This document shows positions 10,526-34,239 of a stretch of DNA of 64,000 nucleotides, piece by piece. The DNA comes from a virus (lineage: Duplodnaviria; Heunggongvirae; Uroviricota; Caudoviricetes). The translations under genes were made by a program, and so were the position numbers. The DNA lies in IMG/VR virus record IMGVR_UViG_3300042894_003937. One strand, 5' to 3'. Below the pieces are notes generated by a model, which was given only the letters and a program-made list of their open reading frames with translations, made no database searches and was not told where the DNA came from. The number at the start of each line of letters is the position of its first letter. The stretch's first letter is position 1.

Positions 10526-10543
10526 AGAACTATATATTAAATC

Positions 10544-10996: not shown

Positions 10997-11011
10997 ATAT
11001 TATTTTATTTT

Positions 11012-11944
11012 TTAGTAAAATTGTACTTGTAATTCATAGAATTGTTCAGGAACATCCTGATCCTTTATAACATTTCTAATATCCATATAATAAAAATCTG
11101 CATCATAAACATCAGGTAAGAATCTGTCAAACACAATCGTTCTGTTTCTAGGATTATCATCTATGTAAACTGCCTTTTTTTGCATATGACGAACAATTTT
11201 TTCACGTGGCTCAATACTATACTCTCTTATCAACATATGTAAAAAAGGTATAACCTGATCTTTAACATCATTCCACTGAATTAGATCTTGAGCTCCTTCT
11301 ATAGTACGTCCATCATAACTAATATTTCTTGTTAAACTAACAAAGTAAGATGGTGATGCTCTGTAACCAGACATTTCCCATGTTACACTTAATTGATAAG
11401 TAGTATCATCTAAAAGATTTGCCAAGTAATTTGAACAGAACTCTCTAACATCATCGACACCACCGGCAGATTCATTATAACTCTTTAAGTATCTCATTAA
11501 AGATTCTTGTTCTTTAGTATCATTCTCTAACATTATTTCAATATATTGAATCTCATCATCATCTTCATACCAATTATCCACAACTCTTATAAACTTCTCA
11601 TAAGTGAATTCTCTTGATTCATGTCTCTGACGAACTTCAATCACTGAACCATTATCAGAACCAGAATCATCAAACTTATAATTCTTATGTAACTGAATCA
11701 CAAATGGAACAACATGATCTTTAACTTCACCCCAGTTGAAATTAGTTCTCATTACCTGACCTGAACCTAAATCAACTGTCTTACATAAAATAACCGAAAC
11801 AAATCGAGAAGGTTTCTTCCAATCAGTATCTTCAATTCTTATCTCAAAGTCAGGATCATCCAATAAGTAAGCCAAGTTTGTCTCACAGAAATCTTTCAAC
11901 TCATCTTTATCTAAACTCTCAAAAATCCTTTTTAAATATTTCAT
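11012..11944 (-). CDS. Fam-A paralog, fused doublet (internal MRYLKSYNES leader)
   Basis: MKYLKRIFES..DFCETNLAYLLDD..GEVKDHVVPFVIQL, then internal MRYLKSYNES..EFCSNYLANLLDD..NDVKDQVIPFLHML. Confidence 0.7.
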   Translation of the reverse strand: MKYLKRIFESLDKDELKDFCETNLAYLLDDPDFEIRIEDTDWKKPSRFVSVILCKTVDLGSGQVMRTNFNWGEVKDHVVPFVIQLHKNYKFDDSGSDNGSVIEVRQRHESREFTYEKFIRVVDNWYEDDDEIQYIEIMLENDTKEQESLMRYLKSYNESAGGVDDVREFCSNYLANLLDDTTYQLSVTWEMSGYRASPSYFVSLTRNISYDGRTIEGAQDLIQWNDVKDQVIPFLHMLIREYSIEPREKIVRHMQKKAVYIDDNPRNRTIVFDRFLPDVYDADFYYMDIRNVIKDQDVPEQFYELQVQFY

Positions 11945-12825
11945 TTTGTATCTTCTTTTTCTGTTAAAATAATCTGTAATCTAATTCTAATATCACCAAA
12001 ATAATACTGACCTGCAGCAGTCTTAAAAGACATAACAATCTTCTTACTAGCAAAATTATCCGATAAACTTAATAAAATCTTATCAGCAGCATCCTGTGCG
12101 AAAAACTCAACCTGATTCAATATATCAGATCTAAAATTAGATAACGGAACTGGCTTCTTAAATTGATTAGTAGTGAATACTCTCATCGGTTCAGACCTTA
12201 CACCAATTATCACATTCTCATATATAATACCTGTTCTTAAAATAGATTGCCACTCTTCCGTAGTAAGTGCTCTCTCCATAGAAATTGCTGTCATTGGTTC
12301 AATATTATCAGGACTTTTAGTAACCCTAACCCCTTCAAATCCAGAATCCAATAACTCAACCAAATAATGTTCTACATCATCTGTCTTTAATTCAACAGAC
12401 TCTTTAATAGGTTTCTTTTTTTCAGACCTGTAAGTCCAAGATTTGAGATCTACCCAAACTAAAATCTGTATTAAAGGTTCATTATCATATACATTTGGTA
12501 AAGGATTACCAGATAAAATTGTTTCAATATCAAACTCCGTATCATCATCTCCATCATAAAACTCTATAGTCTGATCTATTATATTATAATCTCTGTTTAA
12601 CATATGTAAAAATGGAATATATGACTCTTTAACATCTAACCAAGTAAAATCAATCACCTCATTATCAACCTTACCCAAACTTATCAAAAATGTCTTATTA
12701 TTATTTGTAGGTGAAACTTGTATTTTGTAACCATCATCTAACAAATAAGCTAGATAAGACTCACTAAAATCACGTAGCTGTGATTCTATATCAACAGACT
12801 CATTAAATCTTTTTAAATATCTCAT
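11941..12825 (-). CDS. Fam-A paralog with C-terminal extension
   Basis: MRYLKRFNES..DFSESYLAYLLDDGY..LDVKESYIPFLHML. Confidence 0.7.
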   Translation of the reverse strand: MRYLKRFNESVDIESQLRDFSESYLAYLLDDGYKIQVSPTNNNKTFLISLGKVDNEVIDFTWLDVKESYIPFLHMLNRDYNIIDQTIEFYDGDDDTEFDIETILSGNPLPNVYDNEPLIQILVWVDLKSWTYRSEKKKPIKESVELKTDDVEHYLVELLDSGFEGVRVTKSPDNIEPMTAISMERALTTEEWQSILRTGIIYENVIIGVRSEPMRVFTTNQFKKPVPLSNFRSDILNQVEFFAQDAADKILLSLSDNFASKKIVMSFKTAAGQYYFGDIRIRLQIILTEKEDTK

Positions 12826-13292
12826 TCTACCAATTTATTTTTCATTCCAACCTGAAGTGTAATCTCTAATAAAGGAACATCATCATATCTACCAGGTAAA
12901 GGATCACCAGATAAAACATCCTTAATCGAAACACAAAAGTTTTGACTACCATTATATAAACAAATACAAGGAACATCCCATTGTCCTGCGTTTCTACTTG
13001 CTTCACCTTTATCCATTATCTCATACTGCTTATCTAACATATGTAAAAAAGGAATATAAGAATCTTTAACCTCATTCCAAGTAAAACCAGTTGCTTTTCC
13101 CCATCCTAAATCCCAATTTAATTTACATAGATTTATATTATAATCATCTTCTTCTCTTCCTAAATAACCGTGTCCGTTCCAGATAACAGATAATTCAAAA
13201 TCACCATCCAACAAATAAGCTAGATAAGTCTCACAGAAATCTCTTAAATCTTTCTCTAAATCAACAGATTCAAATGTTTTTAAATACCTCAT
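12822..13292 (-). CDS. Fam-A paralog
   Basis: MRYLKTFESV..DFCETYLAYLLDGDF..NEVKDSYIPFLHML. Confidence 0.7.
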   Translation of the reverse strand: MRYLKTFESVDLEKDLRDFCETYLAYLLDGDFELSVIWNGHGYLGREEDDYNINLCKLNWDLGWGKATGFTWNEVKDSYIPFLHMLDKQYEIMDKGEASRNAGQWDVPCICLYNGSQNFCVSIKDVLSGDPLPGRYDDVPLLEITLQVGMKNKLVE

Positions 13293-13759
13293 ATCTTTAT
13301 AGTATTTTTTACTACAATACCAATCTCTTTTATATCATCACCAGTCCAATAATCTGGTCTTTTCACAAGTCTTTGACCCCAATCCTCAATCTCATCTGCT
13401 TTCAAAAATAATTGATTTCCCGACATAAAATTGATAATAATACTCGACTCCCTCTGATCTAAATCTTTATCATTCAAATCATACTCTCTTGATAAAATAG
13501 TAACAAATGGAATATAATAATCTTTAATGTCATTCCAATGAAAAGGTTGAATACGACGATCCACTAAAGTTTTACCCAACCATATAATATACGAGTCCCA
13601 GGCAGATTTAGCTCCAGACCTTTCAGTATCAATAACTTCTATCTTAAAACTCGTATCATCCAATAAGTAAGCTAAATAAGTCTCACAGAAATCTTGTAAC
13701 TCTACTTCATCAACCTGACTATATAAATCGTTCTCGAAAATCTTTTTTAAATATTTCAT
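13289..13759 (-). CDS. Fam-A paralog
   Basis: MKYLKKIFEN..DFCETYLAYLLDD..NDIKDYYIPFVTIL. Confidence 0.7.
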   Translation of the reverse strand: MKYLKKIFENDLYSQVDEVELQDFCETYLAYLLDDTSFKIEVIDTERSGAKSAWDSYIIWLGKTLVDRRIQPFHWNDIKDYYIPFVTILSREYDLNDKDLDQRESSIIINFMSGNQLFLKADEIEDWGQRLVKRPDYWTGDDIKEIGIVVKNTIKI

Positions 13760-14202
13760 ATCTTACGTTTTACTTTAAACATTATTTTTCTAACTGGTTG
13801 ATTACCCGGTATTAAATCATTTAGTATCTTTTCCTTTGGTACATTCGCGCCTGAAAAATCTACCAAATTATTAACAAGACTTCCGTCTTTCATACTACGA
13901 GAAACACTAGGTATCAATTCATAATTATCTATCAAAACTTTGAAGAATGGTATAAAATAATCAGATACATCATCCCAAGTAGCATTAGGATAACTATGTG
14001 ATCCATCAGCATTCGTTTCATATCTTCTCCAAATCATACAGTCATAATAACCAGTATTTGGATAAACTGAAGTTCTCATAGCAATGTCTATTCGCCAATT
14101 ACCATCATCTAATAAGTAAGCTAAATACATCTCACAGAAATCTTTTAACTGCTCATACTCATCTCTATTGACCTCTTCAAAAATTTTTCTTAAATACTTC
14201 AT
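13756..14202 (-). CDS. Fam-A paralog
   Basis: MKYLRKIFEE..DFCEMYLAYLLDDGN..DDVSDYFIPFFKVL. Confidence 0.7.
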   Translation of the reverse strand: MKYLRKIFEEVNRDEYEQLKDFCEMYLAYLLDDGNWRIDIAMRTSVYPNTGYYDCMIWRRYETNADGSHSYPNATWDDVSDYFIPFFKVLIDNYELIPSVSRSMKDGSLVNNLVDFSGANVPKEKILNDLIPGNQPVRKIMFKVKRKI

Positions 14203-14216
14203 ACTCTATATATTAT

Positions 14217-14636
14217 TTAAAAATTTCTAAACCACGCTTTTTCAACCCTTTCTCCCTTTTTAACAACCCTAATGTATAAAGTAGCTATCTCAGTATCATC
14301 TGGTAAATCATTTATCTGATTTAATGTTAAAGGCTTTTGTTTAATACCAGAACCACCATGAAAAACAATACCCATAGCAGGTTCAACATCATTATCATAA
14401 TATAATTCGTAATACTTAAATAGAAAATGTAAGAAAGGTAGAACCTGATCCTTTACTTCAGACCATAAAAAATTAATTGGCTCAGAAGTACCCAACATTA
14501 TCTGATGATAATCATCTCCTTCAAACTTTGAAATCCTTACTTTAAAACCCTCATCTAACAAATAAGCTAAATTAGTCTCACAGAAATCTAATAACTCTTC
14601 TTTTAAACTCTCATTGAACTTTCTCAAATGTTTCAT
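14217..14636 (-). CDS. Fam-A paralog
   Basis: MKHLRKFNES..DFCETNLAYLLDEGF..SEVKDQVLPFLHFL. Confidence 0.7.
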   Translation of the reverse strand: MKHLRKFNESLKEELLDFCETNLAYLLDEGFKVRISKFEGDDYHQIMLGTSEPINFLWSEVKDQVLPFLHFLFKYYELYYDNDVEPAMGIVFHGGSGIKQKPLTLNQINDLPDDTEIATLYIRVVKKGERVEKAWFRNF

Positions 14637-14644
14637 ACCTAATC

Positions 14645-15490
14645 TTATTTTTCTTTAATCATAATACCCACCGAATATATACCTTGCTTATCCGAATAAG
14701 AACCAAATAAAGTATCATTCACCACCGAATATAACGGGAAATCACTAAACGCCTCATCAGTATAACCATGATGTAATCTAAACCTAACCTGACTTGTCGA
14801 ACGACCATCTTTCCTCGGATTACCAAATCCAATAATCTGATACCTATTATGTAATAACTTTAATAACGGTATGTAATAATCCTTTATATCATCCCAAGTG
14901 AAAGTATCACTCTTAAGCGCATATTGATTACTAAGTGATAACCAAATCGCAGTAGTATCATCCTCTGAACCTCTAGGAATAAAAATACGAAAACCCTCAT
15001 CCAATAAATAAGCTAAACAACTTTCTACGAAATCCGTTAACTCATCCTTATCTATACTCTCATTAAACATCTTCAAATGTTTCATACCATCCTTTTTAAC
15101 CACAATCGAAAAACTATAAAATAACATATCATCTCGTAAATCCTCTAACCGATCTATATCCTTAATATGTATATCATCCGAATAAGTCGCTTCTATCCTA
15201 ATAATCGATGAACTGCCCTCATAACCCACCTGATACCTATTAGATAACATCTGTACAAAAGGAATAATACGATTCTTTACCGATGACCACTCAACATCAT
15301 CATGATGAATCCTATTGTTTCTAACCGACCTAGGCGATAACAAAACAATCTTATACGATGTAGTAAATCCCCACACCGATACCGACCACTCATCATCGAT
15401 AAGATAAGCTAAGTAATCATTAGCAAACTCCTGTAACTCTGCCCTTTTATCAGTAGATTCATCATTGAAAGCTTCATTCAAATACTTCAT
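14645..15490 (-). CDS. Fam-A paralog, fused doublet (internal MKHLKMFNES leader)
   Basis: First unit EFANDYLAYLIDDEW..SSVKNRIIPFVQML; second unit starts with an intact internal leader MKHLKMFNESIDKDELTDFVESCLAYLLDEGF..DDIKDYYIPLLKLL. Confidence 0.7.
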   Translation of the reverse strand: MKYLNEAFNDESTDKRAELQEFANDYLAYLIDDEWSVSVWGFTTSYKIVLLSPRSVRNNRIHHDDVEWSSVKNRIIPFVQMLSNRYQVGYEGSSSIIRIEATYSDDIHIKDIDRLEDLRDDMLFYSFSIVVKKDGMKHLKMFNESIDKDELTDFVESCLAYLLDEGFRIFIPRGSEDDTTAIWLSLSNQYALKSDTFTWDDIKDYYIPLLKLLHNRYQIIGFGNPRKDGRSTSQVRFRLHHGYTDEAFSDFPLYSVVNDTLFGSYSDKQGIYSVGIMIKEK

Positions 15491-15924
15491 ACCTTTTCAC
15501 CTTTAATTTTAAATTGAATTGTATAAATCTTATAATCATCACGAAGACGACTAGAAGGAACAATCTGCTCCGATATAATATCATCCATATTAAACCAATC
15601 AGAATATGTACTCTCCAAACCAATTATCTCAATTCTTACATTAGGCGAAACAAGCCTACGATCCATCGTAACTAAATCATACCCATTTCTTAAATGTGTC
15701 AAAAATGGTATAACCTGATCCTTTATCTGACCCCACCTCTTATTAGCAAATAATCTAAATGATAACGTCACCTTATAATCTATAATCTTTAAATCAAAAT
15801 AATCTGGTGAAACCAAAACCCTTAAACCATCATCCATCAAATAAGCTAAGTGAGTCTCACAGAAATCTTGTATATCTTGCTCAGTTAAATCTTTATTCTC
15901 ATTATATCTTCTCAAATGTTTCAT
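15487..15924 (-). CDS. Fam-A paralog
   Basis: MKHLRRYNEN..DFCETHLAYLMDDGL..GQIKDQVIPFLTHL. Confidence 0.7.
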   Translation of the reverse strand: MKHLRRYNENKDLTEQDIQDFCETHLAYLMDDGLRVLVSPDYFDLKIIDYKVTLSFRLFANKRWGQIKDQVIPFLTHLRNGYDLVTMDRRLVSPNVRIEIIGLESTYSDWFNMDDIISEQIVPSSRLRDDYKIYTIQFKIKGEKV

Positions 15925-15927
15925 ACA

Positions 15928-16464
15928 TTATTTATTATTTTCAAAGTTAATTAAAATCGGATCTTTGTAAATATATCCATTTTCAATTCTCTGTGTTTGT
16001 TTAGCATTAGGCCAATAAGAAACAAGTTTATATAAACTTTCACATACTTTTATTGAATTTTTATATTCTTTTCTTACTTCACCATTTACTATCCATTTAT
16101 TTCCATGTACATATACCTGATTCGATTTCTTTTCTTTAATATCTTCCATATTATTATAAAATATTATCTCACTATGCCACTGAATATCAAAAAATATACT
16201 ATACTTTTCCATTCCTAGCTTTGTACCCTGATATATCACATCTTCAATATCATCTATATTATGATGACCTGTCAAAATAATATCAATATCAAGTGGTGTA
16301 CCTTCATCATTTAGTAATTTATTCGCAAAACTTCCTAATAACAAAACATCAAATTTTTCCGCATTCGGTATTTTAAAAAAATCCTCTCGCCAAGCAAAAA
16401 ATGACTCTACACTTGGCGACTTCCAATTTATATCTATATCTATTTTTCCGTATTTTATATTCAT
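15928..16464 (-). CDS. putative nucleotidyltransferase (pol-beta superfamily motif GS-x15-DIDI)
   Basis: LLLGSFANKLLNDEGTPLDIDIILTG fits hG[GS]..[DE]h[DE]h; further acidic residue in FFDIQ; 178 aa. Confidence 0.45.
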   Translation of the reverse strand: MNIKYGKIDIDINWKSPSVESFFAWREDFFKIPNAEKFDVLLLGSFANKLLNDEGTPLDIDIILTGHHNIDDIEDVIYQGTKLGMEKYSIFFDIQWHSEIIFYNNMEDIKEKKSNQVYVHGNKWIVNGEVRKEYKNSIKVCESLYKLVSYWPNAKQTQRIENGYIYKDPILINFENNK

Positions 16465-16590: not shown

Positions 16591-17034
16591 CTAATCCTTC
16601 TTTAAACCCTTAACCGTCAACTTAACCGTAGTAACCAAAAAATCCGGTGCTCCATCATTTACTATCTGATCCACCGTAAATACCTTCTTATTTATATCCA
16701 ACTGCTCGGTACTATAAAAATGAATCCATTCAGACAAATCATACCTCCTAGATAATATACGAACCAACGGGATAAACCTATCCATCACCAAAGAATAATC
16801 ATATAACTTATTAGTAAATCTGCCTATTTGGTCTGGACGACCATCAGTTAAAGATAACCTTATATCAAACTCACCATTCCAAGCCGGTCTTATCTCATAC
16901 GTAAATCCATCATCCGACAACGGTGCCAAAAATTGCTCACATAAATCATCCAACCCATCCTGTAAATCATCACCTTTCAACCTAACATAAAAATCTGACT
17001 CCATAAAACTTTTTAAATACCTCATCATATACAT
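16591..17034 (-). CDS. Fam-A-like paralog (divergent)
   Basis: MYMMRYLKSFMES..DLCEQFLAPLSDDGF..MDRFIPLVRIL. Confidence 0.65.
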   Translation of the reverse strand: MYMMRYLKSFMESDFYVRLKGDDLQDGLDDLCEQFLAPLSDDGFTYEIRPAWNGEFDIRLSLTDGRPDQIGRFTNKLYDYSLVMDRFIPLVRILSRRYDLSEWIHFYSTEQLDINKKVFTVDQIVNDGAPDFLVTTVKLTVKGLKKD

Positions 17035-17052
17035 ATATATAAATCTTTAATA

Positions 17053-17661
17053 ATGAAACTATCATCCGAACTAAAAAAATTTATAGATAAAGAATACTCC
17101 AATCACCAATGCTTCCCACCTAAACACCTTATACTACACGCACTAAACAACATAGAAAACACCAAAGTTATCATCATAGGTCAAGACCCCTACCACGGCC
17201 ATAACCAAGCTCACGGTCTAGCTTTCTCCACACTCGACACCACAATCCCACCTTCTCTGAAAAACATCTTTAAAGAGCTTAATAACGATTTAAACATCGA
17301 AACACCAACACACGGTAACCTAACCCATTGGCATAACCAAGGAGTACTTCTTCTCAATACAATACTAACAGTAAGAAAACACCAACCACTATCCCATAAG
17401 AATAAAGGATGGGAACAATACACCAATAACATTATATCAGAACTAAATAATAATAAGAATAATCTCGTATTCATTCTATGGGGTTCACAAGCTCACAAGA
17501 CAGAGAAACTTATCGATACGAATAAACACCTTATATTAAAGTCTGGCCATCCATCACCACTATCCGCTAATGCAGGGAAATGGTTCAATAATAAACACTT
17601 TAGTAAAACGAATCAATATCTCACAGAGAATAATATAACACCTATCGACTGGACACTATGA
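17053..17661 (+). CDS. ung: uracil-DNA glycosylase, family 1
   Basis: GQDPYHGHNQAHGLAFS, VLLLNTILTVR, GHPSPLSA and PIDW are collinear with E. coli Ung; catalytic Asp and His motifs are intact. Confidence 0.92.
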   Translation: MKLSSELKKFIDKEYSNHQCFPPKHLILHALNNIENTKVIIIGQDPYHGHNQAHGLAFSTLDTTIPPSLKNIFKELNNDLNIETPTHGNLTHWHNQGVLLLNTILTVRKHQPLSHKNKGWEQYTNNIISELNNNKNNLVFILWGSQAHKTEKLIDTNKHLILKSGHPSPLSANAGKWFNNKHFSKTNQYLTENNITPIDWTL

Positions 17662-17996
17662 TAACAACTACCGCACTACCTAAATCAAAATACTTTATTA
17701 AGAACGTAATAGAAAGTTTTCACATACAAGGAACTACTATTGAGATAGAAGCATTCTATGATACATTACATAAAGGTAATAGATACTCTTGTACAGTCAA
17801 ATCAATAAGAACACAATATCCAACAGGACACTACAACCGTAAATCATTTAAAGTATGTGGTGGATATGGCAAAGATAATCAAATTACCCATCCAACATAC
17901 GAGAGTATTCTTCTACACGCTTTACAAATGGCCGAACTAGGTAACGATATAATAAGAGACTTTAAACTTAAACTTATACTAAATTCTACTGAATGA
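17658..17996 (+). CDS. hypothetical protein
   Basis: 112 aa; ATGA overlap with ung. Confidence 0.5.
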   Translation: MITTTALPKSKYFIKNVIESFHIQGTTIEIEAFYDTLHKGNRYSCTVKSIRTQYPTGHYNRKSFKVCGGYGKDNQITHPTYESILLHALQMAELGNDIIRDFKLKLILNSTE

Positions 17997-18229
17997 AAAC
18001 AACTGATGGGTACGAACTACCAGAAGAACACCTCGAAGTAATCAGAAATGTCTGTAATGTAAATGGTCAAGACTTTAATATAACTCTTATACAAAAGATG
18101 AAAAGATCTTACCAAATAGAAGGTACTTATAAAGGTATCGATAAACATTATACCGCTGAAATTGAATTCGATTATATCAAACAAGAGATTAGAAATAATC
18201 GAATAAATGATGTGTTAAATAACAAATAA
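17993..18229 (+). CDS. small protein with tail-like motif (..IRNNRINDVLNNK)
   Basis: 78 aa. Confidence 0.45.
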   Translation: MKTTDGYELPEEHLEVIRNVCNVNGQDFNITLIQKMKRSYQIEGTYKGIDKHYTAEIEFDYIKQEIRNNRINDVLNNK

Positions 18230-18273
18230 CTGAATTAAGGTAAATATACGTAAAATATGGGTAGCTACCAAAA

Positions 18274-18302
18274 GTGTATAAAATCCGGTCGTTTTTTATA
18301 CA
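18274..18302. promoter_or_regulatory. palindromic element P1 (gtgtataaaa-N9-ttttatacac); adjacent palindrome GGTAGCTACC at 18260-18269
   Basis: 10-bp perfect inverted arms; near-identical copies at 20265-20294 and 22456-22485; about 130 bp upstream of the RHH gene. Confidence 0.45.
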
Positions 18303-18432
18303 AATTTTTAGTTGATCCTATTCGTGTTTGTAAGGTTGTCCCAAAACCTTTTTCGTGGTCATTACATTTATTTGCGATTGTGGATAACTTTTCGCATTAT
18401 TTAGAATATATATAGAAAGAAAATAGTTGACG

Positions 18433-18624
18433 ATGTTTGAAAGAGCGAAGAAAGGTTTTAAACCACCTAAACCAAAAAAGCAAAGGATAAACTTCTTTAT
18501 GAACAAAGAGGTGTATGACCAGTTTGAGTTGTACTGTGATGCGAACCAATATAAGAGAAACGAATTGATTGAATGTATCTTAGAAGAGTTTCTGAATAAG
18601 TATGGAACAGATAAAAAAAGGTAG
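18433..18624 (+). CDS. ribbon-helix-helix (CopG/Arc-like) DNA-binding protein
   Basis: KKQRINFFMNKEVYDQFELYCDANQYKRNELIECILEEFL: beta-strand/helix/helix pattern typical of RHH; ORF track begins at TTG 18427, ATG at 18433. Confidence 0.55.
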   Translation: MFERAKKGFKPPKPKKQRINFFMNKEVYDQFELYCDANQYKRNELIECILEEFLNKYGTDKKR

Positions 18625-18625
18625 A

Positions 18626-18751
18626 ATGAAAGATATGTTACCAGTGGGTTCATTTTATGTTACCTATGAAGATGTTAGACCATATTGGAGACCTGTTATA
18701 CTAGCGAGAAAGTATAAGATTAAAAGGATTCTGTCATGGCGATTCCTTTAG
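18626..18751 (+). CDS. tiny basic peptide, Fam-D (..WRPVILARKYKIKRILSWRFL), 41 aa
   Basis: Translated by hand; below the ORF-track cut-off; shares the RKxKIKRI core with seven other tiny ORFs. Confidence 0.35.
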   Translation: MKDMLPVGSFYVTYEDVRPYWRPVILARKYKIKRILSWRFL

Positions 18752-18762
18752 TCCCATATGGT

Positions 18763-18864
18763 ATGAGTTATGCTGATTGGGCTAAACGGGTTCATAGACC
18801 GACGAATTTAAAGTGGATAAGAAAGAACTCACGAATGAGAAAGATTAAAAGGATATATGAATAA
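18763..18864 (+). CDS. tiny basic peptide, Fam-D (MSYADWAKRVHRPTNLKWIRKNSRMRKIKRIYE), 33 aa
   Basis: Hand translation; RMRKIKRIYE core. Confidence 0.35.
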   Translation: MSYADWAKRVHRPTNLKWIRKNSRMRKIKRIYE

Positions 18865-18868
18865 TGAT

Positions 18869-18905
18869 AAAACCCACTTAATAGTGGGTTTATCTGTTAT
18901 TATTT
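18869..18905. terminator. hairpin terminator aaaacccact-taat-agtgggttt plus T-rich tail; identical copy at 21755-21790
   Basis: 9-10 bp GC-containing stem, 4-nt loop, followed by atctgttattattt. Confidence 0.55.
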
Positions 18906-18929
18906 ATATACTATTATAAAAAAAAATAA

Positions 18930-19451
18930 TTAAAATGCGTATTGATCAAATGATTTATATCTTTCTCCTTCTTTATATTTATCAAATTTCACTCTTGTAG
19001 ATGTACCGTTATAAATATAACCTTCATTAAATTCTAAAATATATGTTAAATTCCCATCTTTGTAAGAAATTGATTCTTGATCAACATCTAAAACTTCGAA
19101 GTCTTGACCATCTATTGTTATGTAATCATTATTAGGTTGATAGTTTAAACTAATGTTACCTTGAACGGCAGTATTTATAAATTGTTGGGAATTGATAATA
19201 TAATTTTCATTTCCGGGGTTATAATATTTAAGTACTAATTCGGCATTTATCACGAATCCTTTTTCAGGATTTATGTGTTTTTGTTTAACTACGTTTTCTA
19301 TGTTATCATCGGGTGTACATGATTGAAAAGGACTTCCAAGTAGACATGCACCCATAGCGGCACCAATAATTGCTTTCTTACCGAAGTTTGCTAAGCCTTC
19401 GTTAGTTTCTTCACTTTTAGTGAATTTATTAAAATCGTTTAAATATTTCAT
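18930..19451 (-). CDS. secreted/lipoprotein-like protein with Fam-A-type leader (MKYLNDFNKF)
   Basis: Hydrophobic segment AIIGAAMGACLLGSPFQSC after the leader. Confidence 0.55.
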   Translation of the reverse strand: MKYLNDFNKFTKSEETNEGLANFGKKAIIGAAMGACLLGSPFQSCTPDDNIENVVKQKHINPEKGFVINAELVLKYYNPGNENYIINSQQFINTAVQGNISLNYQPNNDYITIDGQDFEVLDVDQESISYKDGNLTYILEFNEGYIYNGTSTRVKFDKYKEGERYKSFDQYAF

Positions 19452-19551
19452 TTTTTGATTATTTTTTTAAGTATATATTATTATTTAAAAATAATTTTTC
19501 TCTGTGTTTAATTAAAGATGATGGTAGACATAAATTGTTACTATATAATTT

Positions 19552-20169
19552 ATGATTATATATACAGACAAAAGTCAATCAGAAGAGGTTGAACCACATC
19601 CAGAACTAATTTTATACTTTCAAGAGACACAAAAATTTTCAGGAAAACTACCAGATGATTATAATGAGGGAAATGAATTCTACAATATAGTAAGTAATAT
19701 TGAACAAAATATATTTTTATTAGATAGATTAAATGAAAGAAATCTACTTAAAGAAAATAACAATATGATAGATTGTGGAATAGGTCTTGGATTTTCTCTT
19801 TTTGATTTTTATTTACAATCTCTTAGTTTAAATAGAAATTTCACATTCACTGGAATTGAAAAACAAAAAATATATGTTGATTATCTTAAAGAAAATCTAC
19901 TATCATTTTGGAATGAAGAGTTGAATATAATTGAAGATGATATAATGAATCATAGTTACAGTGATTATAATATTGTTTATTCATACACACCATTTCGTTC
20001 TGGAAAAAGTTTAAATGAGTTTTATAATAAAATAGCTTATGAAGTAAAAAGTGGTTCAATTATAATTGAGAATGCTAATTGGGGATTAGGTTATCATGAT
20101 TTGTTAAAAAATATTGATTTGTTAGAACCTATTGAGATAGATGATATACATATTTTTGTAAAAAGATAA
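19552..20169 (+). CDS. hypothetical protein, possible SAM-methyltransferase fold (MIDCGIGLG)
   Basis: Gly-rich motif-I-like segment; weak. Confidence 0.45.
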   Translation: MIIYTDKSQSEEVEPHPELILYFQETQKFSGKLPDDYNEGNEFYNIVSNIEQNIFLLDRLNERNLLKENNNMIDCGIGLGFSLFDFYLQSLSLNRNFTFTGIEKQKIYVDYLKENLLSFWNEELNIIEDDIMNHSYSDYNIVYSYTPFRSGKSLNEFYNKIAYEVKSGSIIIENANWGLGYHDLLKNIDLLEPIEIDDIHIFVKR

Positions 20170-20264
20170 TTTCATTATAAAATAGGTTGGAGTCTACTCT
20201 TCTGATCTTATCAACCCGTCATCCAATACAAAGATAAGAAGATTATATGGTTCTACCAAGTAAA

Positions 20265-20294
20265 GCGTATAAAATCCGTACGTTTTTTACACGC
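20265..20294. promoter_or_regulatory. palindromic element P2 (gcgtataaaatccgtacgttttttacacgc)
   Basis: Copy of P1/P3; shares upstream tatgg.t.ctaccaa with the P1 flank. Confidence 0.45.
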
Positions 20295-20334
20295 TTTATA
20301 ATAAAACTTATCATTACAGGTTCTATATAATTAT

Positions 20335-20457
20335 ATGGGTTGGGTAAATAAGAATGTTTGGATAGATGAACCAGAGGATGATGGGATAAGTCATTTCAAG
20401 TTTTTGAGAAGGATTAGAAGGAAAACAAAGATAAAAAGGTTATTTGTCTGTATTTAA
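20335..20457 (+). CDS. tiny basic peptide, Fam-D (..HFKFLRRIRRKTKIKRLFVCI), 40 aa
   Basis: Hand translation; RRKTKIKRLF core. Confidence 0.35.
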   Translation: MGWVNKNVWIDEPEDDGISHFKFLRRIRRKTKIKRLFVCI

Positions 20458-20764
20458 AGGAAAGTGTATTGTGGAGAAAGGTGATATAGTGCAAAGCACT
20501 CTCTGCGTGGGTGGAGTATTAGTTTGTAGGAAGACTTATTGTAGATATGTTTTATATAATCGTAGTTGGTCGAGAAATATAAGTGGTAAGAGTTATATTA
20601 TAATGGCGATAAAGGAAAGTGTAAATGTTTATGTTTCTAATGAAGAGGGAGGTTCTATGTTATTTTCTTTATATGATGATGGTAAGTTACCATATTTAGG
20701 GGATTATTTTATTTCGTTGGTGGATTTTCGTGAGGAAAAATTAGAACAAATTATAGGTAAATGA
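20444..20764 (+). CDS. small protein with C-terminal tail motif (..DFREEKLEQIIGK); start may be the internal ATG at 20603
   Basis: 106-aa ORF; stop overlaps the purN start (ATGA). Confidence 0.45.
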   Translation: MSVFKGKCIVEKGDIVQSTLCVGGVLVCRKTYCRYVLYNRSWSRNISGKSYIIMAIKESVNVYVSNEEGGSMLFSLYDDGKLPYLGDYFISLVDFREEKLEQIIGK

Positions 20765-21336
20765 AAAAGATTATACTTTTTGCTTCGGGTAATGGTTCTA
20801 ATGTTGAGAATATCATTGAATATTTCAATGCAGGTGAAGTTACTGTTGTGGGTGTTTTTACTAATAACTCAAATGCTAAGGTTTTAGAAAAGGTTAGTAG
20901 GTATGGTATTCAAACGGTAATTTTCAGTAGGGAAGATTTTACTTCGGGATTTGTTTTAGATAAGATAATTTCGTTTGAACCGGATTTAATTGTTTTGGCG
21001 GGATTTCTTTGGAAGATACCTGAATCGATTATTAGTTATTATACTAATAGAATAATCAATATACATCCTTCTTTATTACCAAAATATGGAGGAAAGGGTA
21101 TGTATGGAATGAATGTTCATCAATCTGTTTTAGACAATCGTGACAAGGAAACTGGGATTACTATTCATTATGTGAATAATGATTATGATGATGGTGAATT
21201 CATTTTTCAACAAAGTGTGATGATTGATGATTGTTTTTCCGCTGCTGATATTGCGGTTAAAATACATGAGTTGGAATATAGGTATTTACCTGTTGTAATA
21301 AAAAGAATACTGATTGGATATGAAAAATTGGGATAA
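20761..21336 (+). CDS. purN: phosphoribosylglycinamide formyltransferase
   Basis: ILFASGNGSN, LIVLAGFL, NIHPSLLPKYGG and H..V..G.TIHYV are collinear with PurN. Confidence 0.88.
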   Translation: MKKIILFASGNGSNVENIIEYFNAGEVTVVGVFTNNSNAKVLEKVSRYGIQTVIFSREDFTSGFVLDKIISFEPDLIVLAGFLWKIPESIISYYTNRIINIHPSLLPKYGGKGMYGMNVHQSVLDNRDKETGITIHYVNNDYDDGEFIFQQSVMIDDCFSAADIAVKIHELEYRYLPVVIKRILIGYEKLG

Positions 21337-21562
21337 TTTGGCTGTTACAGATAAGTTTAACATTACTGGTCGTGGAGTTGTGTTGATTGTTGATTTCATT
21401 AAGTCTGGTTTATGTACAGAGGTATGGGAGAAGGATTTACCGAAAATTGACGTGGGAGACACGATTTTATATGAAGGTATAACTTATACTATACGAGCTA
21501 TAGATAGTTCAAGGAACACGTTTAATGGTCGTTTAATGACAAGGATAGGAGTATTGGTTTGA
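21314..21562 (+). CDS. hypothetical protein
   Basis: 82-aa ORF overlapping the purN end. Confidence 0.45.
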   Translation: MDMKNWDNLAVTDKFNITGRGVVLIVDFIKSGLCTEVWEKDLPKIDVGDTILYEGITYTIRAIDSSRNTFNGRLMTRIGVLV

Positions 21563-21564
21563 TT

Positions 21565-21699
21565 ATGGATTTAAAATTGAGGATTACGGACTCTATTGAG
21601 AGGAAGTTGGGTTTAAAGGATTCGGGGTTGATAAGTTCTTATTCGTTATATAATACGATTAGGCGGATGCAGATTATAAGTAATTTGTTTAAAAAATAA
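21565..21699 (+). CDS. tiny basic peptide, divergent Fam-D (..LKLRITDSIERKLG..IRRMQIISNLFKK), 44 aa
   Basis: Hand translation; Arg-rich; same island type. Confidence 0.3.
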   Translation: MDLKLRITDSIERKLGLKDSGLISSYSLYNTIRRMQIISNLFKK

Positions 21700-21754
21700 C
21701 CGGATTTTAAACAATGAGACTTGGTATTCTATATTAGAATGAGTTGGATATGAT

Positions 21755-21790
21755 AAAACCCACTTAATAGTGGGTTTATCTGTTATTATT
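21755..21790. terminator. hairpin terminator identical to the one at 18869-18905
   Basis: gataaaacccacttaatagtgggtttatctgttattattt. Confidence 0.55.
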
Positions 21791-21799
21791 TTAGTTAAC

Positions 21800-22390
21800 T
21801 TAGTTGTATACTCTGATTTCTATTGGACTTGATTGTAAAAGGTCATTAAACGGTGTATTATCATAAGAAGTATGTAACTGCATAGTTCCTGTAGTTGTTA
21901 AATCAATTCCTAATATATAGGTGCCACCACTTCCACCATAAGGTAAACCCATAGCCCATGTTTTATTAGTAAACGCTCCATTTATTATATATCCTCCTAC
22001 TCCATTATAAGAAAAAGTAGGTGTAAATCCTAAAGTATTTTCTAACACAACAGCAGTTGGAGCTGCTGTACCACTCTGTGTTAATAAAGCAGTATAAACT
22101 GAGTATAACGGTAATGCAGATGTTCCGGAAGTACCATTTAAACCAGAGGTTCCAGAAGTACCATTTATACCAGAAGTTCCAGAGGTTCCAGAGGTTCCAG
22201 AAGTACCATTTATACCAGAAGTTCCATTTATACCAGAAGTACCAGAGGTTCCAGCTATACCAGAAGTTCCAGAAGTACCAGAGTTTGATTGTGTTAAACC
22301 AGCTAACTGATCTTCTAAATAGTGAAAGTTGTTATCCATTTGAGCAACTGATAATGCTCCGTCTTGTTCTGATCTATATGTAATACCCAT
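21800..22390 (-). CDS. collagen-like repeat tail-fibre-like protein, short paralog (Gly-Thr-Ser triplets)
   Basis: N-terminal 33 aa identical to the 22497..24305 product; (GTS)n/(GIN) triplet run; shared C-terminal domain ending PIEIRVYN. Confidence 0.7.
22287..22390. repeat. about 104-bp near-identical repeat (fibre gene 5' end), copy 1
   Basis: Matches 24202..24305 apart from a few substitutions. Confidence 0.6.
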
Positions 22391-22455
22391 TTTTTATATT
22401 TTTTTTATACTACTCTTTTATTTTGATATAAATAAATGTAGCTCTCTGTGAAACA

Positions 22456-22485
22456 GTGTATAAAATCTGTACGTTTTTTATACAC
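22456..22485. promoter_or_regulatory. palindromic element P3 (gtgtataaaatctgtacgttttttatacac)
   Basis: Copy of P1/P2; lies in the upstream region of the short fibre gene. Confidence 0.45.
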
Positions 22486-22496
22486 CTTTAACAAAT

Positions 22497-24305
22497 TTAG
22501 TTATATACTCTTATTTCGATTGGAGTTCTTAATATTAAATCGTCTGCACCAGTACTACTCTGATTAGTTGCTATATATATATCATTAGAAGTAGTGTCTT
22601 CATTATCAACATAAAAGTCATAATCATTGATAGCCCAATGATTTTTACAAAAGAACACTACGGTTTTTAATAAAGGAAATCCACCAGTACTACTTAAAAA
22701 ATATAAACCGGGAGAGTCTCTATTCCAAACGGGAGTAAAACCTAAAGTATTTTCTAACACAGAGGCTGTTGGTGATGCTGTACCACTCTGTGTTAATATA
22801 GCGGTATAAACTTTATATTTTGGTGCATAAGCCGTAGTTTGAACCGAATTATCTGGGAATGTTATACTTCCAGTTGTACCAAATACCCAGTTTTCAGGTC
22901 CATCATTATCACCAGTTTGTATAGTAACAGTTCCATTATCAGCAATCACTCTACCACTCTGATAACGAATTATTTCTATATCTATTCCAGTTATAGCCAA
23001 ACTCGCAGTTGGTGCATTCTGGTCCACGGTTAAAACTATTGGGTTTGACTGGACCTTATTCGTGATATTTAGGCTTACTGCTGTAGTTGGATCGTAAAAC
23101 ACTGTAAATATGTCTGTTGCTACTTGATAACCGTTTATGAAATTTACTAGAGTTGAATCTGGATTAGTAATAGTTATCAGATTGCCAGACCATGTAGCAG
23201 AATCATAGTTAGATCCTACAGAGCAACTTGCAGAATCTTGAGTGTATAAATTCTTTGAATTTATTTGTACTGTTTTACTAGTGTCACTAACTTTTAAGTT
23301 ATTATCTTCACCACCAATGAATAGATCAGTTGCACTATCATCGATAGGACCACCTGCACGAATATGTATATGATTAGGACTTCCTTCAGTAGGATCTAAT
23401 ATAATGTATTGGTCAGTTTCTAAAGAAGAATCTGGTTTTAATACTATTATTGGACCAAGACCAAGATTGACTGATTCTATTTGACTACCATTAGAATTTA
23501 TAGCACCAGTAATATTCACATCACCATCTACATCTAAAGCTACTGATGGATTGGTTGTTCCTATACCTATCTTACCATCATTAGTAATTCTCATTCTTTC
23601 ATCACCATCAGTTTGCACGATTACGTTTCCTCCCGCGGTGCCTCCACCTCCTGCGTTTATAACGATATTACCACCAGTATTAGCTCCGTAACCAGATTCA
23701 ATGTATACTTCACCACCATAACCATTATTACTTTGTCCTGCATATATTTCAACAAAACCACCATCACCTGTATCTGTGTATCCACCTCTTATCTTAACTG
23801 TACCTCCTTCTGAGATACCTTCTCCTGCATCAACTTTAATATCTCCACCATTTTGTCCTTTACCGGCCCATAGGTAAATGTCTCCACCTTCGCCACTGTA
23901 GGTAAGTCCATTTTGATAACTATCACCACCAGATATGACTAATCTTTCAACGGTCGGAGCAGATCCTGTTCCATCTTGAGTTGATATGATTTTTTGGTAT
24001 ACACTTCCTTTTTCAAATTGAAGGTTATCTCCGCTTCCTGTTCTTTGGTTACCTGGTAAGAATGGAAAACTAATTGCACCGGTTGTACCAAACCCTGCAG
24101 GTCCTGTAGCACCTTGTGGTCCAGTAGGTCCTTGAGGTCCTGTAGCACCATTTATACCAGAAGGTCCTGTAGCACCGGCAGGTCCAGTAGCACCAGAACC
24201 AGAGTTTGTTAAACCAGCTAACTGATCTTCTAAATAGTGAAAGTTGTTATCCATTTGAGCAACTGATAATGCACCGTCTTGTTCTGATCTATATGTAATA
24301 CCCAT
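22497..24305 (-). CDS. collagen-like repeat tail-fibre-like protein, long paralog
   Basis: 602 aa; G-X-Y collagen-like repeats (GATGPAGATGPSG..); Gly-rich beta-rich middle; C-terminal domain shared with the short paralog. Confidence 0.75.
   Translation of the reverse strand: MGITYRSEQDGALSVAQMDNNFHYLEDQLAGLTNSGSGATGPAGATGPSGINGATGPQGPTGPQGATGPAGFGTTGAISFPFLPGNQRTGSGDNLQFEKGSVYQKIISTQDGTGSAPTVERLVISGGDSYQNGLTYSGEGGDIYLWAGKGQNGGDIKVDAGEGISEGGTVKIRGGYTDTGDGGFVEIYAGQSNNGYGGEVYIESGYGANTGGNIVINAGGGGTAGGNVIVQTDGDERMRITNDGKIGIGTTNPSVALDVDGDVNITGAINSNGSQIESVNLGLGPIIVLKPDSSLETDQYIILDPTEGSPNHIHIRAGGPIDDSATDLFIGGEDNNLKVSDTSKTVQINSKNLYTQDSASCSVGSNYDSATWSGNLITITNPDSTLVNFINGYQVATDIFTVFYDPTTAVSLNITNKVQSNPIVLTVDQNAPTASLAITGIDIEIIRYQSGRVIADNGTVTIQTGDNDGPENWVFGTTGSITFPDNSVQTTAYAPKYKVYTAILTQSGTASPTASVLENTLGFTPVWNRDSPGLYFLSSTGGFPLLKTVVFFCKNHWAINDYDFYVDNEDTTSNDIYIATNQSSTGADDLILRTPIEIRVYN
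24202..24305. repeat. about 104-bp near-identical repeat (fibre gene 5' end), copy 2
   Basis: Matches 22287..22390. Confidence 0.6.
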
Positions 24306-24353
24306 GATTTATATTTATGTTTTTTTATATACTATATATTTAATATAAATATT

Positions 24354-24385
24354 AAAAAAACCCACTATTAAGCGGGTTTGTTTTT
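24354..24385. terminator. hairpin aaaccc-N10-gggttt plus T-run (variant of the 18869 hairpin)
   Basis: aaaaaaacccactattaagcgggtttgttttt. Confidence 0.45.
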
Positions 24386-24935
24386 ATTTAACGGCTACTA
24401 TTTCAAAGTAACCGTTATGATCAATTGAACCAACATCAGCAACTCTAGCTTCTTCACCTTTATCTAAACGACAATAAATTCCTACTTCACCTTTCAACTG
24501 AGTAGTATTATAATAATTATTAGTCGGTATATCTTGATATTCTGTTCCATATGAAGAATAGATACCTATTTCACCAGCTTCTTTATTGTATTTTATAAAA
24601 TAATTATTTGTTGGTATATCCTGACTACGACTTCTATAATCTTCAATGTCTTTTGGATCGTAATTCTTGAATAGTAGGTAGTATTCACCATGTTTCATTT
24701 CCAAACCTTTAGCTTCTTTATGTGATAAAGAAGGAGTTGATGCTAAATCTATCCAACTACCGAAATAAAACCAGTTATCTCTTGGCGGCGTTAAAGCAAT
24801 TGCCGATTTAATATAATTATCCCAAAATTTATCATAACCACTCTGAGTAAATTTAACAACAATTTTATCAGGGTTGTTTTTCGTATTTTCATAATTATAT
24901 TCATTAAACTCCTCAAATAATTTTACGTATTTCAT
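24384..24935 (-). CDS. hypothetical protein with MKYVKLFEEF leader and internal YQDIPTNNY repeat
   Basis: 183 aa; two copies of QDIPTNNY..GE(I/V)GIY. Confidence 0.55.
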   Translation of the reverse strand: MKYVKLFEEFNEYNYENTKNNPDKIVVKFTQSGYDKFWDNYIKSAIALTPPRDNWFYFGSWIDLASTPSLSHKEAKGLEMKHGEYYLLFKNYDPKDIEDYRSRSQDIPTNNYFIKYNKEAGEIGIYSSYGTEYQDIPTNNYYNTTQLKGEVGIYCRLDKGEEARVADVGSIDHNGYFEIVAVK

Positions 24936-28484: not shown

Positions 28485-28781
28485 TTAATTAAAGCAGATA
28501 TAATTACCTACATAATATCTATTAAAAGTTTGAGGATCGATATAAACCGTTATAAATGTACCATTCTGATTTATATCAAATGAATATTGAGTGTTTCCAT
28601 TATTTCTTTTAGAAGCGATTAAGCCACAACCATAATATCTTTCAGTATAATTTGGATATAAAAATCCAATATTGTAATAAACTGGATTTATATAATTTGG
28701 AATTTGATAATTTGGAATTGGTTCTACAACACATCCACTTAATGTAAATGATAGTACAATTGCTAATATAATTTTTTTCAT
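28485..28781 (-). CDS. lipoprotein (signal peptide plus lipobox LSGC)
   Basis: MKKIILAIVLSFTLSGCVV. Confidence 0.55.
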   Translation of the reverse strand: MKKIILAIVLSFTLSGCVVEPIPNYQIPNYINPVYYNIGFLYPNYTERYYGCGLIASKRNNGNTQYSFDINQNGTFITVYIDPQTFNRYYVGNYICFN

Positions 28782-28785
28782 AGTT

Positions 28786-29013
28786 TTATTTTTTTAGTTT
28801 TTTTATTTCAATTATAAATATGTATTTGAATGCTGCCCACATCCAAAATACGGTAGCAGAGGTAACTACTAGATTTATGAACAATTGTTTTATCGAGAAA
28901 CCTTGTTGGTATATATACCACCATCCACATATACTATTAACGATTAGTGATAGCATACATAAAATCATAAATGTTATATAAATAACATCACCAGGTGTTG
29001 GTTTTACTTTCAT
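28786..29013 (-). CDS. small membrane protein (2 TM)
   Basis: 75 aa, hydrophobic. Confidence 0.5.
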   Translation of the reverse strand: MKVKPTPGDVIYITFMILCMLSLIVNSICGWWYIYQQGFSIKQLFINLVVTSATVFWMWAAFKYIFIIEIKKLKK

Positions 29014-33236: not shown

Positions 33237-33253
33237 ATGGTTTATTTATTTGT

Positions 33254-34238: not shown

Positions 34239-34239
34239 T

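Follow-up and report, generated by a model that had tools for sequence, protein, structure and literature searches.

Repeated hairpins with covarying arms, often beside predicted sigma-A-type promoters, in uncultured freshwater phages: a possible analogue of the PeSLs of T4-type phages

The stretch of DNA analyzed here (the window) is the 64,000-nucleotide IMG/VR record IMGVR_UViG_3300042894_003937, from a virus of the Caudoviricetes. It has a G+C content of 30%, is 93% coding and contains 133 open reading frames (ORFs), mostly small. We analyzed a repeated ~30-bp palindrome, here called Pal, that lies in an AT-rich, ORFan-dense region of the window; most ORFs there, other than those named in this text, have no family match. 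From left to right, the region contains + strand genes at 17053-18229, the first copy of Pal (Pal1), the gene for a ribbon-helix-helix (RHH)-like protein, two small + strand ORFs and a GC-stemmed hairpin at 18870. These are followed by a - strand gene, a + strand gene ending at 20169, Pal2, and + strand genes including one for a formyltransferase, with Pal4 on the last stop codon. A second GC-stemmed hairpin (21756), a gene for a 196-aa collagen-like protein (- strand), Pal3, a gene for a 602-aa collagen-like protein (- strand) and a third GC-stemmed hairpin (24358) complete the order.

We found that Pal is repeated in this region and nowhere else in the window. We searched the whole window for the consensus GTGTATAAAATCYGTACGTTTTTTATACAC, allowing up to 3 mismatches, and used 100 dinucleotide-preserving shuffles as a control. 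There were only three matches, all on the + strand (18274-18303, 20265-20294 and 22456-22485), and none in the shuffles (0/100). The three copies reported in the original prediction, which was made from the sequence alone, are thus real. Their number was incomplete: the scan for further copies that had been proposed as a check, done here with a covariance model built from 49 family members and run on the full 64 kb, gave a fourth, degenerate copy at 21681-21718. Beyond these four copies, no covariance-model score in the 64 kb was above noise. All four fall inside 18270-22489, or 4.2 kb of the 64-kb window.

18274-18303, no strand: Pal copy 1, GTGTATAAAATCCGGTCGTTTTTTATACAA; covariance-model score 51.3 bits
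20265-20294, no strand: Pal copy 2, GCGTATAAAATCCGTACGTTTTTTACACGC; 50.1 bits; arms reach out to 20261-20298
22456-22485, no strand: Pal copy 3, GTGTATAAAATCTGTACGTTTTTTATACAC; 44.7 bits; perfect 10-bp arms
21681-21718, - strand: Pal copy 4 (degenerate), TGTTTAAAAAATAACCGGATTTTAAACA; 36.4 bits, E 4e-5

Pal1 is 45 nt past the stop codon of ORF 17993-18229, and the RHH gene starts 130 nt further on. Pal3 lies between the two collagen-like genes; from the stop codon of the 602-aa gene there are 11 nt to Pal3, and from Pal3 there are 65 nt to the 196-aa gene downstream. Pal4 overlaps the stop codon of ORF 21559-21699. Perfect 10-bp arms, which had been described for every copy, were found in Pal3 alone. 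The arms of Pal1 pair at 9 of 10 positions, with the outermost G opposite an A, and those of Pal2 comprise 14 positions (AAAGCGTATAAAA / TTTTACACGCTTT) with one A.C mismatch inside. The string tccgtacg in the core, also described as a palindrome, is not one, and CGTACG is. Copies 1-3 share a central asymmetry, AAAA-TC-CGnnCG-TT-TTTT (TC on the left, TT on the right), and the core of Pal4 has the opposite orientation.

Copies 1-3 all folded as the expected hairpin, and better than their own shuffles (dG -6 to -15.5 kcal/mol, z -2.5 to -5.2). The predicted dG was -6.1 kcal/mol for Pal1 (z -2.5), -12 and -15.5 kcal/mol for the + and - strands of Pal2 (z -4.2 and -5.2), and -8.6 to -8.8 kcal/mol for Pal3. 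For Pal4 it was -6.3 to -6.8 kcal/mol.

Pal is a member of a family present in other freshwater phages. We scanned metagenome contigs with the Pal core pattern and found ~20 contigs from freshwater lakes (~31% G+C) with true Pal members. From the related freshwater contigs we obtained 49 distinct copies. A search with the RHH protein gave 21 homologues (65-98% identity), and in all of the contigs in this set numbered L063-L074 there was a Pal 131-233 nt before the RHH start. One related locus contained seven copies in 6.3 kb (L067), two contained six each (L063, L065) and two contained five each (L064, L068). In the related loci all copies lay from the RHH gene onwards and none before it.

Three groups of matches were rejected. 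A first pattern used on IMG/VR gave a single match, by chance and non-palindromic. A scan of a genome collection gave 23 matches, nearly all of them non-palindromic chance matches or ordinary terminators. Matches in L005, L007 and L036 (67-kb contig Ga0182027_10000515) were set aside because they belong to a different tandem repeat, with units of ~145-nt period made of AAAATCCGTACGTTTTTT-like and AAAATCCGTAYAAAACCC sequences.

Pal-like hairpins were also found in a contig of 171,766 bp, possibly a near-complete genome (IMG/VR UViG_3300042691_036629; here L100). It has three such hairpins at 9462-10373, one of them 19 nt after a tRNA-Leu gene. Their arms (ATACTAAAA/TTTTAGTAT) are unlike those in the window and their core is identical. 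The 11.7-kb piece of L100 that we compared had no protein similarity to the window.

We measured conservation on a gap-free alignment of the 49 distinct copies. The inner core, AAAA-WM-CGnnCG-KW-TTTT, was kept (WM is TC or AA; KW is TT or GA). The A and T tracts were invariant, TCCG and the central second C were present in at least 90% of the 49 copies, and the centre read CGTACG, CGTGCG, CGGTCG or similar. There were three inner forms: TC/GA, paired; AA/TT, paired; and the hybrid TC/TT with its mirror AA/GA. The window's clade has the hybrid form. The stem is AT-rich and has 10-14 pairs. The outer arms differed among copies, even in one genome, yet remained complementary (for example GTGTAT, GTGTAG, ATGCA, TGACA, GAGT and ATACT).

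We found that the two arms covary. In the 15-pair helix there were two-sided changes in 92 cells, compared with 57 in shuffles. The arm covariation score was 0.252, compared with 0.119 in shuffled alignments (0/500 reached the observed score) and at most 0.143 when the partner was slid. These results favor a hairpin over a purely linear protein-binding site, with the test applying equally to a hairpin in RNA and a hairpin in DNA. Because the arms covary over 49 distinct copies and the copies outfold their shuffles, the original suggestion of a structured motif was right.

Pal is found mostly at the ends of genes. Of the 43 copies for which both neighbors were defined, 27 were at tandem junctions, 13 at convergent junctions (at least 8 of these resting on gene calls of the collection itself) and 3 at divergent junctions. 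The background in the same loci was 299 tandem, 42 convergent and 35 divergent junctions (11% convergent). Pal usually began -7 to +45 nt from a stop codon, and several of the stops were a TAA in the left arm. Between co-directional genes it was nearly always nearer the upstream stop codon than the following ATG. This distribution is that of a transcript-end element and not that of an operator.

The gene positions bear directly on the function first proposed for Pal. The original prediction had taken the protein encoded next to Pal1 for an RHH regulator and the palindromes for its candidate operators, in a small regulon of its own gene, a metabolic operon and a fibre gene. The protein does look like an RHH protein.

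18433-18624, + strand: RHH-like protein of 63 aa; match to PHROG 3180, Arc-like repressor (E 2.6e-7)
18312-18348, + strand: non-coding block TTGATCCTAT-N9-TAAGGTTGTCCCAAAACC, between Pal1 and the RHH gene

In addition to the PHROG match, the protein matched PDB entry 2kel (E 0.014), and it had no Pfam hit. Its predicted structure (pLDDT 81) consists of an extended N-terminal segment followed by helices at residues 25-37 and 42-57. The best Foldseek matches were mostly RHH proteins (Reg576, Arc, ParD2, CopA, PrpA), none of them significant.

If Pal were the operator set of this repressor, RHH dimers on the dyad would control the adjacent promoters, in a local regulon that includes the RHH gene. 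The inner 18 bp of Pal can be read as two inverted half-sites, AAAAWMCG-N2-CGKWTTTT. Pal1 is flanked by two promoter-like sequences that diverge from it, with the RHH ATG 130 nt further on, an arrangement kept in all RHH loci down to 65% protein identity, and Pals are present in every locus from the RHH gene onwards. The arrangement at Pal1 resembles that of operators of the Arc/Mnt type (phage P22 immI), which are dyad-symmetric sites of ~21 bp next to a small RHH gene. Those operators lie over a promoter. In contrast, Pal is 30 bp long and mostly at gene 3' ends, and where it adjoins a promoter it occupies roughly -40 to -68, ahead of the -33 box.

Several further results argue against the operator set. 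There is no promoter to regulate between convergent genes, where 13 of the 43 Pals lie, and one Pal-like hairpin follows a tRNA. Many Pals are directly past a stop codon, have no promoter and leave 8-23 nt before the following ATG. Relatives hold 5-7 Pals within a few kb, most of them after stop codons. The covariation of the outer arms is not needed for protein binding. The predicted DNA-reading beta-strand of the RHH protein varies among homologues (RINFFM, RIHFSL/M, RVSFFI, RINIYL), but neither the Pal core nor the block at 18312-18348 changes with it. It is instead the 70 nt directly before the RHH ATG that change with the beta-strand variant, and simple linkage may explain this. Finally, the core is the same in the 172-kb contig L100, and we detected no RHH homologue in IMG/VR or in the 11.7-kb piece of L100. 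The gene-end positions of most Pals and the constancy of the core across RHH variants make an operator regulon unlikely as a general explanation, and we would give the operator set, as a whole, little weight. The regulon of three promoters is not supported. An operator role is possible for Pal1 alone, as orthologues of Pal1 are upstream of all RHH homologues examined.

Another candidate for the RHH promoter or operator is the block at 18312-18348, which is kept in every RHH locus, down to 65% protein identity. The whole interval before the RHH gene (18312-18432, including TTGATCCTAT...GGTTGTCCCAAAACC) is 95% identical to that in L021, compared with ~80% for the flanking genes.

We found predicted promoters of a Bacteroidota type at fixed distances from Pal. 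A sigma-70 promoter model gave 58 promoters in the window and 59 in shuffles. This is background, and the sigma-70 model is therefore wrong for the host. The sigma-A consensus of Bacteroidota is -33 TTG and -7 TAnnTTTG (PMC7366714, PMC9723704). Many intergenic regions of the window contain TTTG-N19-21-TAnnTTTG in the correct orientation, 15-60 nt before an ATG, and the phage's own form of the -7 box, ccgTATCTTTGTA, precedes many genes. The strict pattern was not enriched over the whole window (13 matches; 11.5 expected), so it is the intergenic placement and the orientation before genes that are informative. With promoters of this type before many genes, the host is most likely a member of the Bacteroidota. 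Two of the predicted promoters abut Pal copies.

18241-18272, - strand: predicted sigma-A-type promoter at Pal1, TTTGGTAGCTACCCATATTTTACGTATATTTA; abuts Pal1 and reads away from it; +1 near 18236
20229-20259, - strand: predicted sigma-A-type promoter at Pal2, TTGGTAGAACCATATAATCTTCTTATCTTTG; abuts Pal2 and reads away from it; fits ccgTATCTTTGTA

In both, the -33 box begins 3-6 nt from the palindrome. The Pal1 promoter is kept in L013, L021, L024, L027, L063 and L064. Over the family, 22 of 57 copies (~40%) have a sigma-A TTG that begins 3-7 nt outside the 28-bp palindrome, compared with a background of 4%; with a stricter promoter pattern the result was 21 of 54 copies, compared with 3.4%. In one locus (L068) the promoter TTG is inside the Pal arm. 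The Pal-linked promoters always read away from the palindrome. The spacers of these promoters differ in sequence, which indicates that the geometry of Pal and promoter is kept and not merely copied. In five loci (L002, L021, L039, L064, L065) the order is upstream stop codon, Pal, promoter, next gene.

Two candidates near these promoters were rejected. A 10-bp palindrome beside Pal1, GGTAGCTACC at 18260-18269, had been reported as a second palindrome. It is present and is palindromic, and it falls within the -33 box and spacer of a promoter. Relatives read GAAACTACC or GGTGGTTACC at this position, and as it is not conserved we rejected it as a second operator. The other candidates were coding genes on the - strand downstream of the Pal1 and Pal2 promoters: the - strand ORFs look like noise, and the + strand ORFs look genuine and are conserved as proteins.

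A different motif, A[TA]ATATA[CGA], shows a 7-fold enrichment in the 50 nt before ATGs on the same strand, and its distance from the ATG peaks sharply at exactly 11 nt. It is found at ~38 gene starts (e.g., 2951, 3396, 35178, 42506, 53106, 59919, 24316 and 22401). It could be a phage-specific promoter for mRNAs with no leader or a short one, or a Bacteroidota initiation context that lacks a Shine-Dalgarno sequence.

The constant distance between promoter and palindrome also bears on the notion that Pal is a selfish or neutral repeat. A repeat of the type of repetitive extragenic palindromes (REP) or miniature inverted-repeat transposable elements could spread, or be gene-converted, with no regulatory role and be placed wherever insertion is tolerated. 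This would agree with the many near-identical copies in non-coding gaps, their variable presence between close relatives, and the lack of a strand or U-tract signal. The REP and BIME elements of enterobacteria are likewise short imperfect extragenic palindromes, repeated, often after the last of a set of co-transcribed genes or between such genes. They have a conserved structure and roles in mRNA 3' stabilization, attenuation and recombination. Pal differs from them in being clustered on a phage genome, with no RAYT-type transposase and no GTAG-type 5' tetranucleotide seen. A neutral repeat is not expected to have its -33 box offset fixed at 3-7 nt next to spacers of different sequence, nor to be enriched at convergent junctions, tight against or overlapping stop codons. 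The position of Pal1 is kept in all RHH loci, and we found no transposase. We consider this explanation very doubtful.

Ends of nucleotide homology between the window and its relatives repeatedly coincided with Pal. Homology stopped at 20292-20296, the edge of Pal2, in five loci (L002, L009, L017, L021, L026). It stopped at 21713-21717, the edge of Pal4, in L021, L024, L026, L027 and L029. In L025 it stopped at 22455, the edge of Pal3, and 21700-22455 was wholly missing. In L011 it stopped at 20267, and the gene at 28485-28791 of the window was joined there to the left of Pal2. A 56-aa gene between two Pals was present in L021, L024, L027 and L029 and not in the window. Over 15 loci, 32 ends of high-scoring segment pairs (HSPs) were within 12 nt of a Pal, compared with 10.9 expected (~3-fold); this enrichment is only supportive, as the null was uniform and the HSPs are not independent.

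Pal itself was inverted in some comparisons. In L023 and L034 the loop is flipped between identical flanks, and in L021 and L024 the loop is flipped and the right flank has changed along with it. Flipped loops are the product expected of recombination between inverted arms. A small Cys-rich, Zn-finger-like gene next to Pal1 was inverted as well. In L064 (5673-5933) it has the direction of the Pal1-linked promoter, which would drive it, and in L021 (8356-8577), L013 (175-399) and L024 (49-279) it is not inverted and points towards that promoter. In L064 the Pal1-linked promoter faces a sense-strand gene. The window has an unrelated 78-aa gene in this slot.

These exchanges might also be the work of a site-specific recombinase, with Pal in the role of attC or lox in an integron-like array, 3' of small promoterless cassettes. 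Pal does have inverted arms of 10-13 bp around an asymmetric centre of 6-10 nt. In L067 and L068 each small ORF of the co-directional arrays has a Pal behind it, and Pal-flanked cassettes are present in some phages and absent from others, with breakpoints at Pal. The likeness to attC sites extends to imperfect palindromes 3' of small, mostly promoterless cassettes, to outer sequence that varies while pairing is kept, and to conserved unpaired positions. However, the centre of Pal is conserved in sequence, and there was no integrase, attI or R/L core box: the genes called for the window region and for eight related loci included no tyrosine or serine recombinase, and no attC-type R/L boxes (GTTRRRY) were in the Pal alignment. 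A loop flipped between identical flanks (L023 and L034) is typical of recombination between hairpin arms and not of simple site-specific exchange, and such inversions point to homologous exchange. Homologous recombination of the kind described for PeSLs (below) accounts for the same data. We regard a site-specific recombination site as highly improbable.

Based on these results, we consider it moderately likely that Pal is a PeSL-like cassette, a terminator or insulator plus promoter that doubles as recombination homology. PeSLs are elements of T4-type phages in which a stem-loop is combined with an early promoter and which have a role in modular shuffling (Arbiol et al. 2010, PMC2839356; Comeau et al. 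2014, PMC4122927). Termination by the stem-loop and promoter activity were shown by reporter assays, and crossovers were located within or beside the stem-loop (PMC2839356, PMC4122927). Pal and PeSLs both consist of a stem-loop and a host-type promoter, repeated in a hyperplastic, ORFan-rich region. Both are found at junctions of insertion, deletion or replacement between close relatives. For Pal, the adjacency to predicted promoters and the clustering of copies were observed directly, and the position at junctions was judged against a crude null.

In the mechanism that we propose, Pal would be the stem-loop half of a repeated intergenic cassette, at or overlapping the stop codons that bound small gene cassettes. 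Such cassettes would fill the hyperplastic region that starts at the RHH gene. As RNA, the hairpin would end or attenuate transcripts from a gene stopping there, on either strand. A transcript ending at Pal would insulate the adjacent promoter or the next cassette. As DNA, the near-identical copies could serve as recombination homology, through which cassettes would be deleted, inserted, replaced or inverted between related phages. Termination or insulation, promoter activity and the mechanism of recombination are all predicted from sequence.

Pal is not strictly a member of the PeSL family. Its promoters are of the Bacteroidota sigma-A type (-33 TTG, -7 TAnnTTTG), whereas those of PeSLs are sigma-70 promoters. 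Its stem is AT-rich with a conserved CG-containing loop, whereas that of PeSLs is polyG/polyC. The promoter of Pal abuts the hairpin at 3-7 nt, ~60% of Pals have no promoter, and two promoters in the window face the upstream gene. We recognized no T4 core gene among the window proteins scanned, and the phages are unrelated to T4-type phages at the sequence level. Given these differences in promoter type, hairpin chemistry and phage lineage, and the lack of a match to deposited phages, the likeness to PeSLs is one of analogy and not of membership.

Several observations weigh against a PeSL-like role for Pal. Many concern termination. The stem has only 1-3 G-C pairs, with a dG of only -3 to -15 kcal/mol, and Pal is not a canonical intrinsic terminator. 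It does have likenesses to one: a hairpin with an A-tract and a T-tract, just past stop codons, at convergent junctions and also after a tRNA. In contrast to intrinsic terminators, the A and T tracts of Pal are inside the stem, and the sequence is shared among copies. There was no enrichment of U-tracts after the stem in the direction of transcription (T counts were equal both ways). On the sense strand in 26 co-directional contexts there was no excess of G.U over A.C (16 of each). A consensus terminator scan of the window did not include Pal among its calls. A canonical GC-stemmed terminator is already present three times in the Pal region.

18870-18891 (wider span 18866-18900), no strand: GC-stemmed hairpin copy 1, AAACCCACTTAATAGTGGGTTT; dG -14.5 kcal/mol; closes the block after Pal1
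21756-21777 (wider span 21752-21786), no strand: GC-stemmed hairpin copy 2; located at the convergent junction that follows the formyltransferase block
24358-24379, - strand: GC-stemmed hairpin copy 3, with one mismatch; after gene 24384-24935

In this hairpin (GATAAAACCCACTTAATAGTGGGTTTATCTGTTAT) A and T tracts flank a GC stem, and the flanking sequence is repeated as well. From its sequence, it is predicted to be a canonical bidirectional terminator that closes each gene block of the Pal region.

The remaining observations on this side concern promoters, junctions and the core. The promoters of Pal1 and Pal2 face the 3' end of the preceding + strand gene and not a downstream gene, and Pal3 and Pal4 have no intact promoter (none or a degenerate one). 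Divergent units flank some of the copies (L011; L064 copy 1). Most homology breakpoints are not at Pal, in addition to the uniform null and the non-independent HSPs behind the enrichment. The core is common even to L100, a phage without detectable protein similarity to the window in the piece compared. The conserved core is the feature that the PeSL-like model explains least. Neither simple termination nor plain recombination homology explains a core kept in L100, which is a hint of a specific factor.

One such factor could act on RNA. Pal would then be a recognition hairpin for a dedicated factor of the phage or the host, for example a processing or 3'-stabilizing site (as with the RNase III sites of T7 or REP in operons) or a regulated, factor-dependent terminator. 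Consistent with this, the sequence of the core is kept together with the structure, including in the distant phage L100, two mismatched pairs beside the loop are conserved, and Pal is in almost every gap of the co-directional arrays of L067 and L068, gaps too tight for a separate promoter. Against it, the sense strand has no excess of G.U over A.C. Sites have been kept even where the loop is flipped, RNase III would have only a short stem of 10-14 pairs to act on, and there is no candidate factor, the neighboring ORFs having no family matches. An RNA-level factor is, on balance, unlikely.

More speculatively, a dedicated hairpin-binding or hairpin-processing factor may recognize the core specifically, either as a recombination system or in the control of a terminator or insulator switch; we think this rather improbable. 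In the first version, a hairpin-specific system could move Pal-bounded cassettes, giving an integron-like array in lytic Bacteroidota phages. In the second, the terminator or insulator would set which cassettes are expressed, possibly under the adjacent RHH protein.

The Pal2 promoter would transcribe a conserved sequence that resembles an independent small RNA or a leader.

20172-20224, - strand: candidate sRNA or leader whose first base is the predicted +1 of the Pal2 promoter; GGAUGACGGGU...AGAAGAGUAGACUCCAACCUAUUUUAU (also designated by the sequence GGAUGACGGG...)

To place the +1 (G at 20224) we used the coordinates that PMC9723704 gives for the -7 box, -12 to -5. The sequence is ~50-70 nt long and consists of GGATGACGGGY, a small variable hairpin, GRAAGAGTAGACTCC, NNCC and a T-rich run. 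As RNA it would read GGAUGACGGGY, variable hairpin, GRAAGAGUAGACUCC and a U-rich end, opening with a mini-ORF of 3-5 codons (AUG ACG GGC ...). It was also found in L002, L009, L021, L023, L026, L034 and L063-L066, one per related locus, and was followed by different genes or by none, depending on the locus. RNAalifold gave no convincing structure or covariation for this sequence, single folds were no better than shuffles, and there was no Rfam match.

The neighbors of Pal include proteins of recognizable families.

17053-17661: uracil-DNA glycosylase-family protein, with relatives chiefly in Flavobacterium and Bacteroides phages
20761-21336: formyltransferase
21800-22390, - strand: 196-aa collagen-like fibre-type protein
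22497-24305, - strand: 602-aa collagen-like fibre-type protein

Thymidylate synthase, FolD, a leucine-rich repeat (LRR) protein, an SPFH protein and an endonuclease VII-like protein were also recognized in the window. A megablast search of deposited phages with 17000-24000 gave no nucleotide match, so there was no annotated relative to use. Rfam 15 gave no match at 17900-22700 up to E 1, and in the whole window only tRNA reached the gathering score. That tRNA, at 33253-33352 (- strand), is 100 nt long with an implied insert of ~29 nt and is not reported by ARAGORN; a sigma-A promoter near 33400-33438 precedes it. A second tRNA-like stretch (GGGATAGGACTCGAACCTAC...) at ~61913-62012 (- strand) was called by neither program.

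The window has several other repeats. A 167-nt repeat (86% identity; 22240-22406 and 24155-24321) covers the 5' ends of both collagen-like genes and 16 nt upstream, and the 196-aa gene has a collagen repeat of 9-nt period at 22098-22295. A family of paralogous genes of ~145 aa, with at least 20 copies, some fused to ~290 aa, is the source of most direct and inverted repeats in the window. Its members are at 8410-16464 (-), 34183-35123 (+), 39100-39636 (-), 53703-54604 (-) and 59930-61261 (+). The member tested had no family match, and related contigs have the family too. Tandem 69-nt repeats at 36268-37074 are the leucine-rich repeats of the 416-aa LRR protein (35980-37230), which is unusual in a phage accessory region.

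If Pal is a PeSL-like cassette, shuffling by repeated terminator-promoter cassettes would not be confined to the T4-type phages of Proteobacteria. Uncultured freshwater phages of Bacteroidota would have evolved it independently, using the promoter type of that phylum. This would account for the mosaic differences between the metagenomic contigs studied here and would make Pal a practical marker of the boundaries of transcription units and cassettes in ORFan-rich regions that otherwise cannot be annotated. Bacteroidota genetics would also gain compact parts, both promoters and hairpins. The Pal core and the candidate small RNA linked to Pal2 are leads to what may be new phage regulatory factors.

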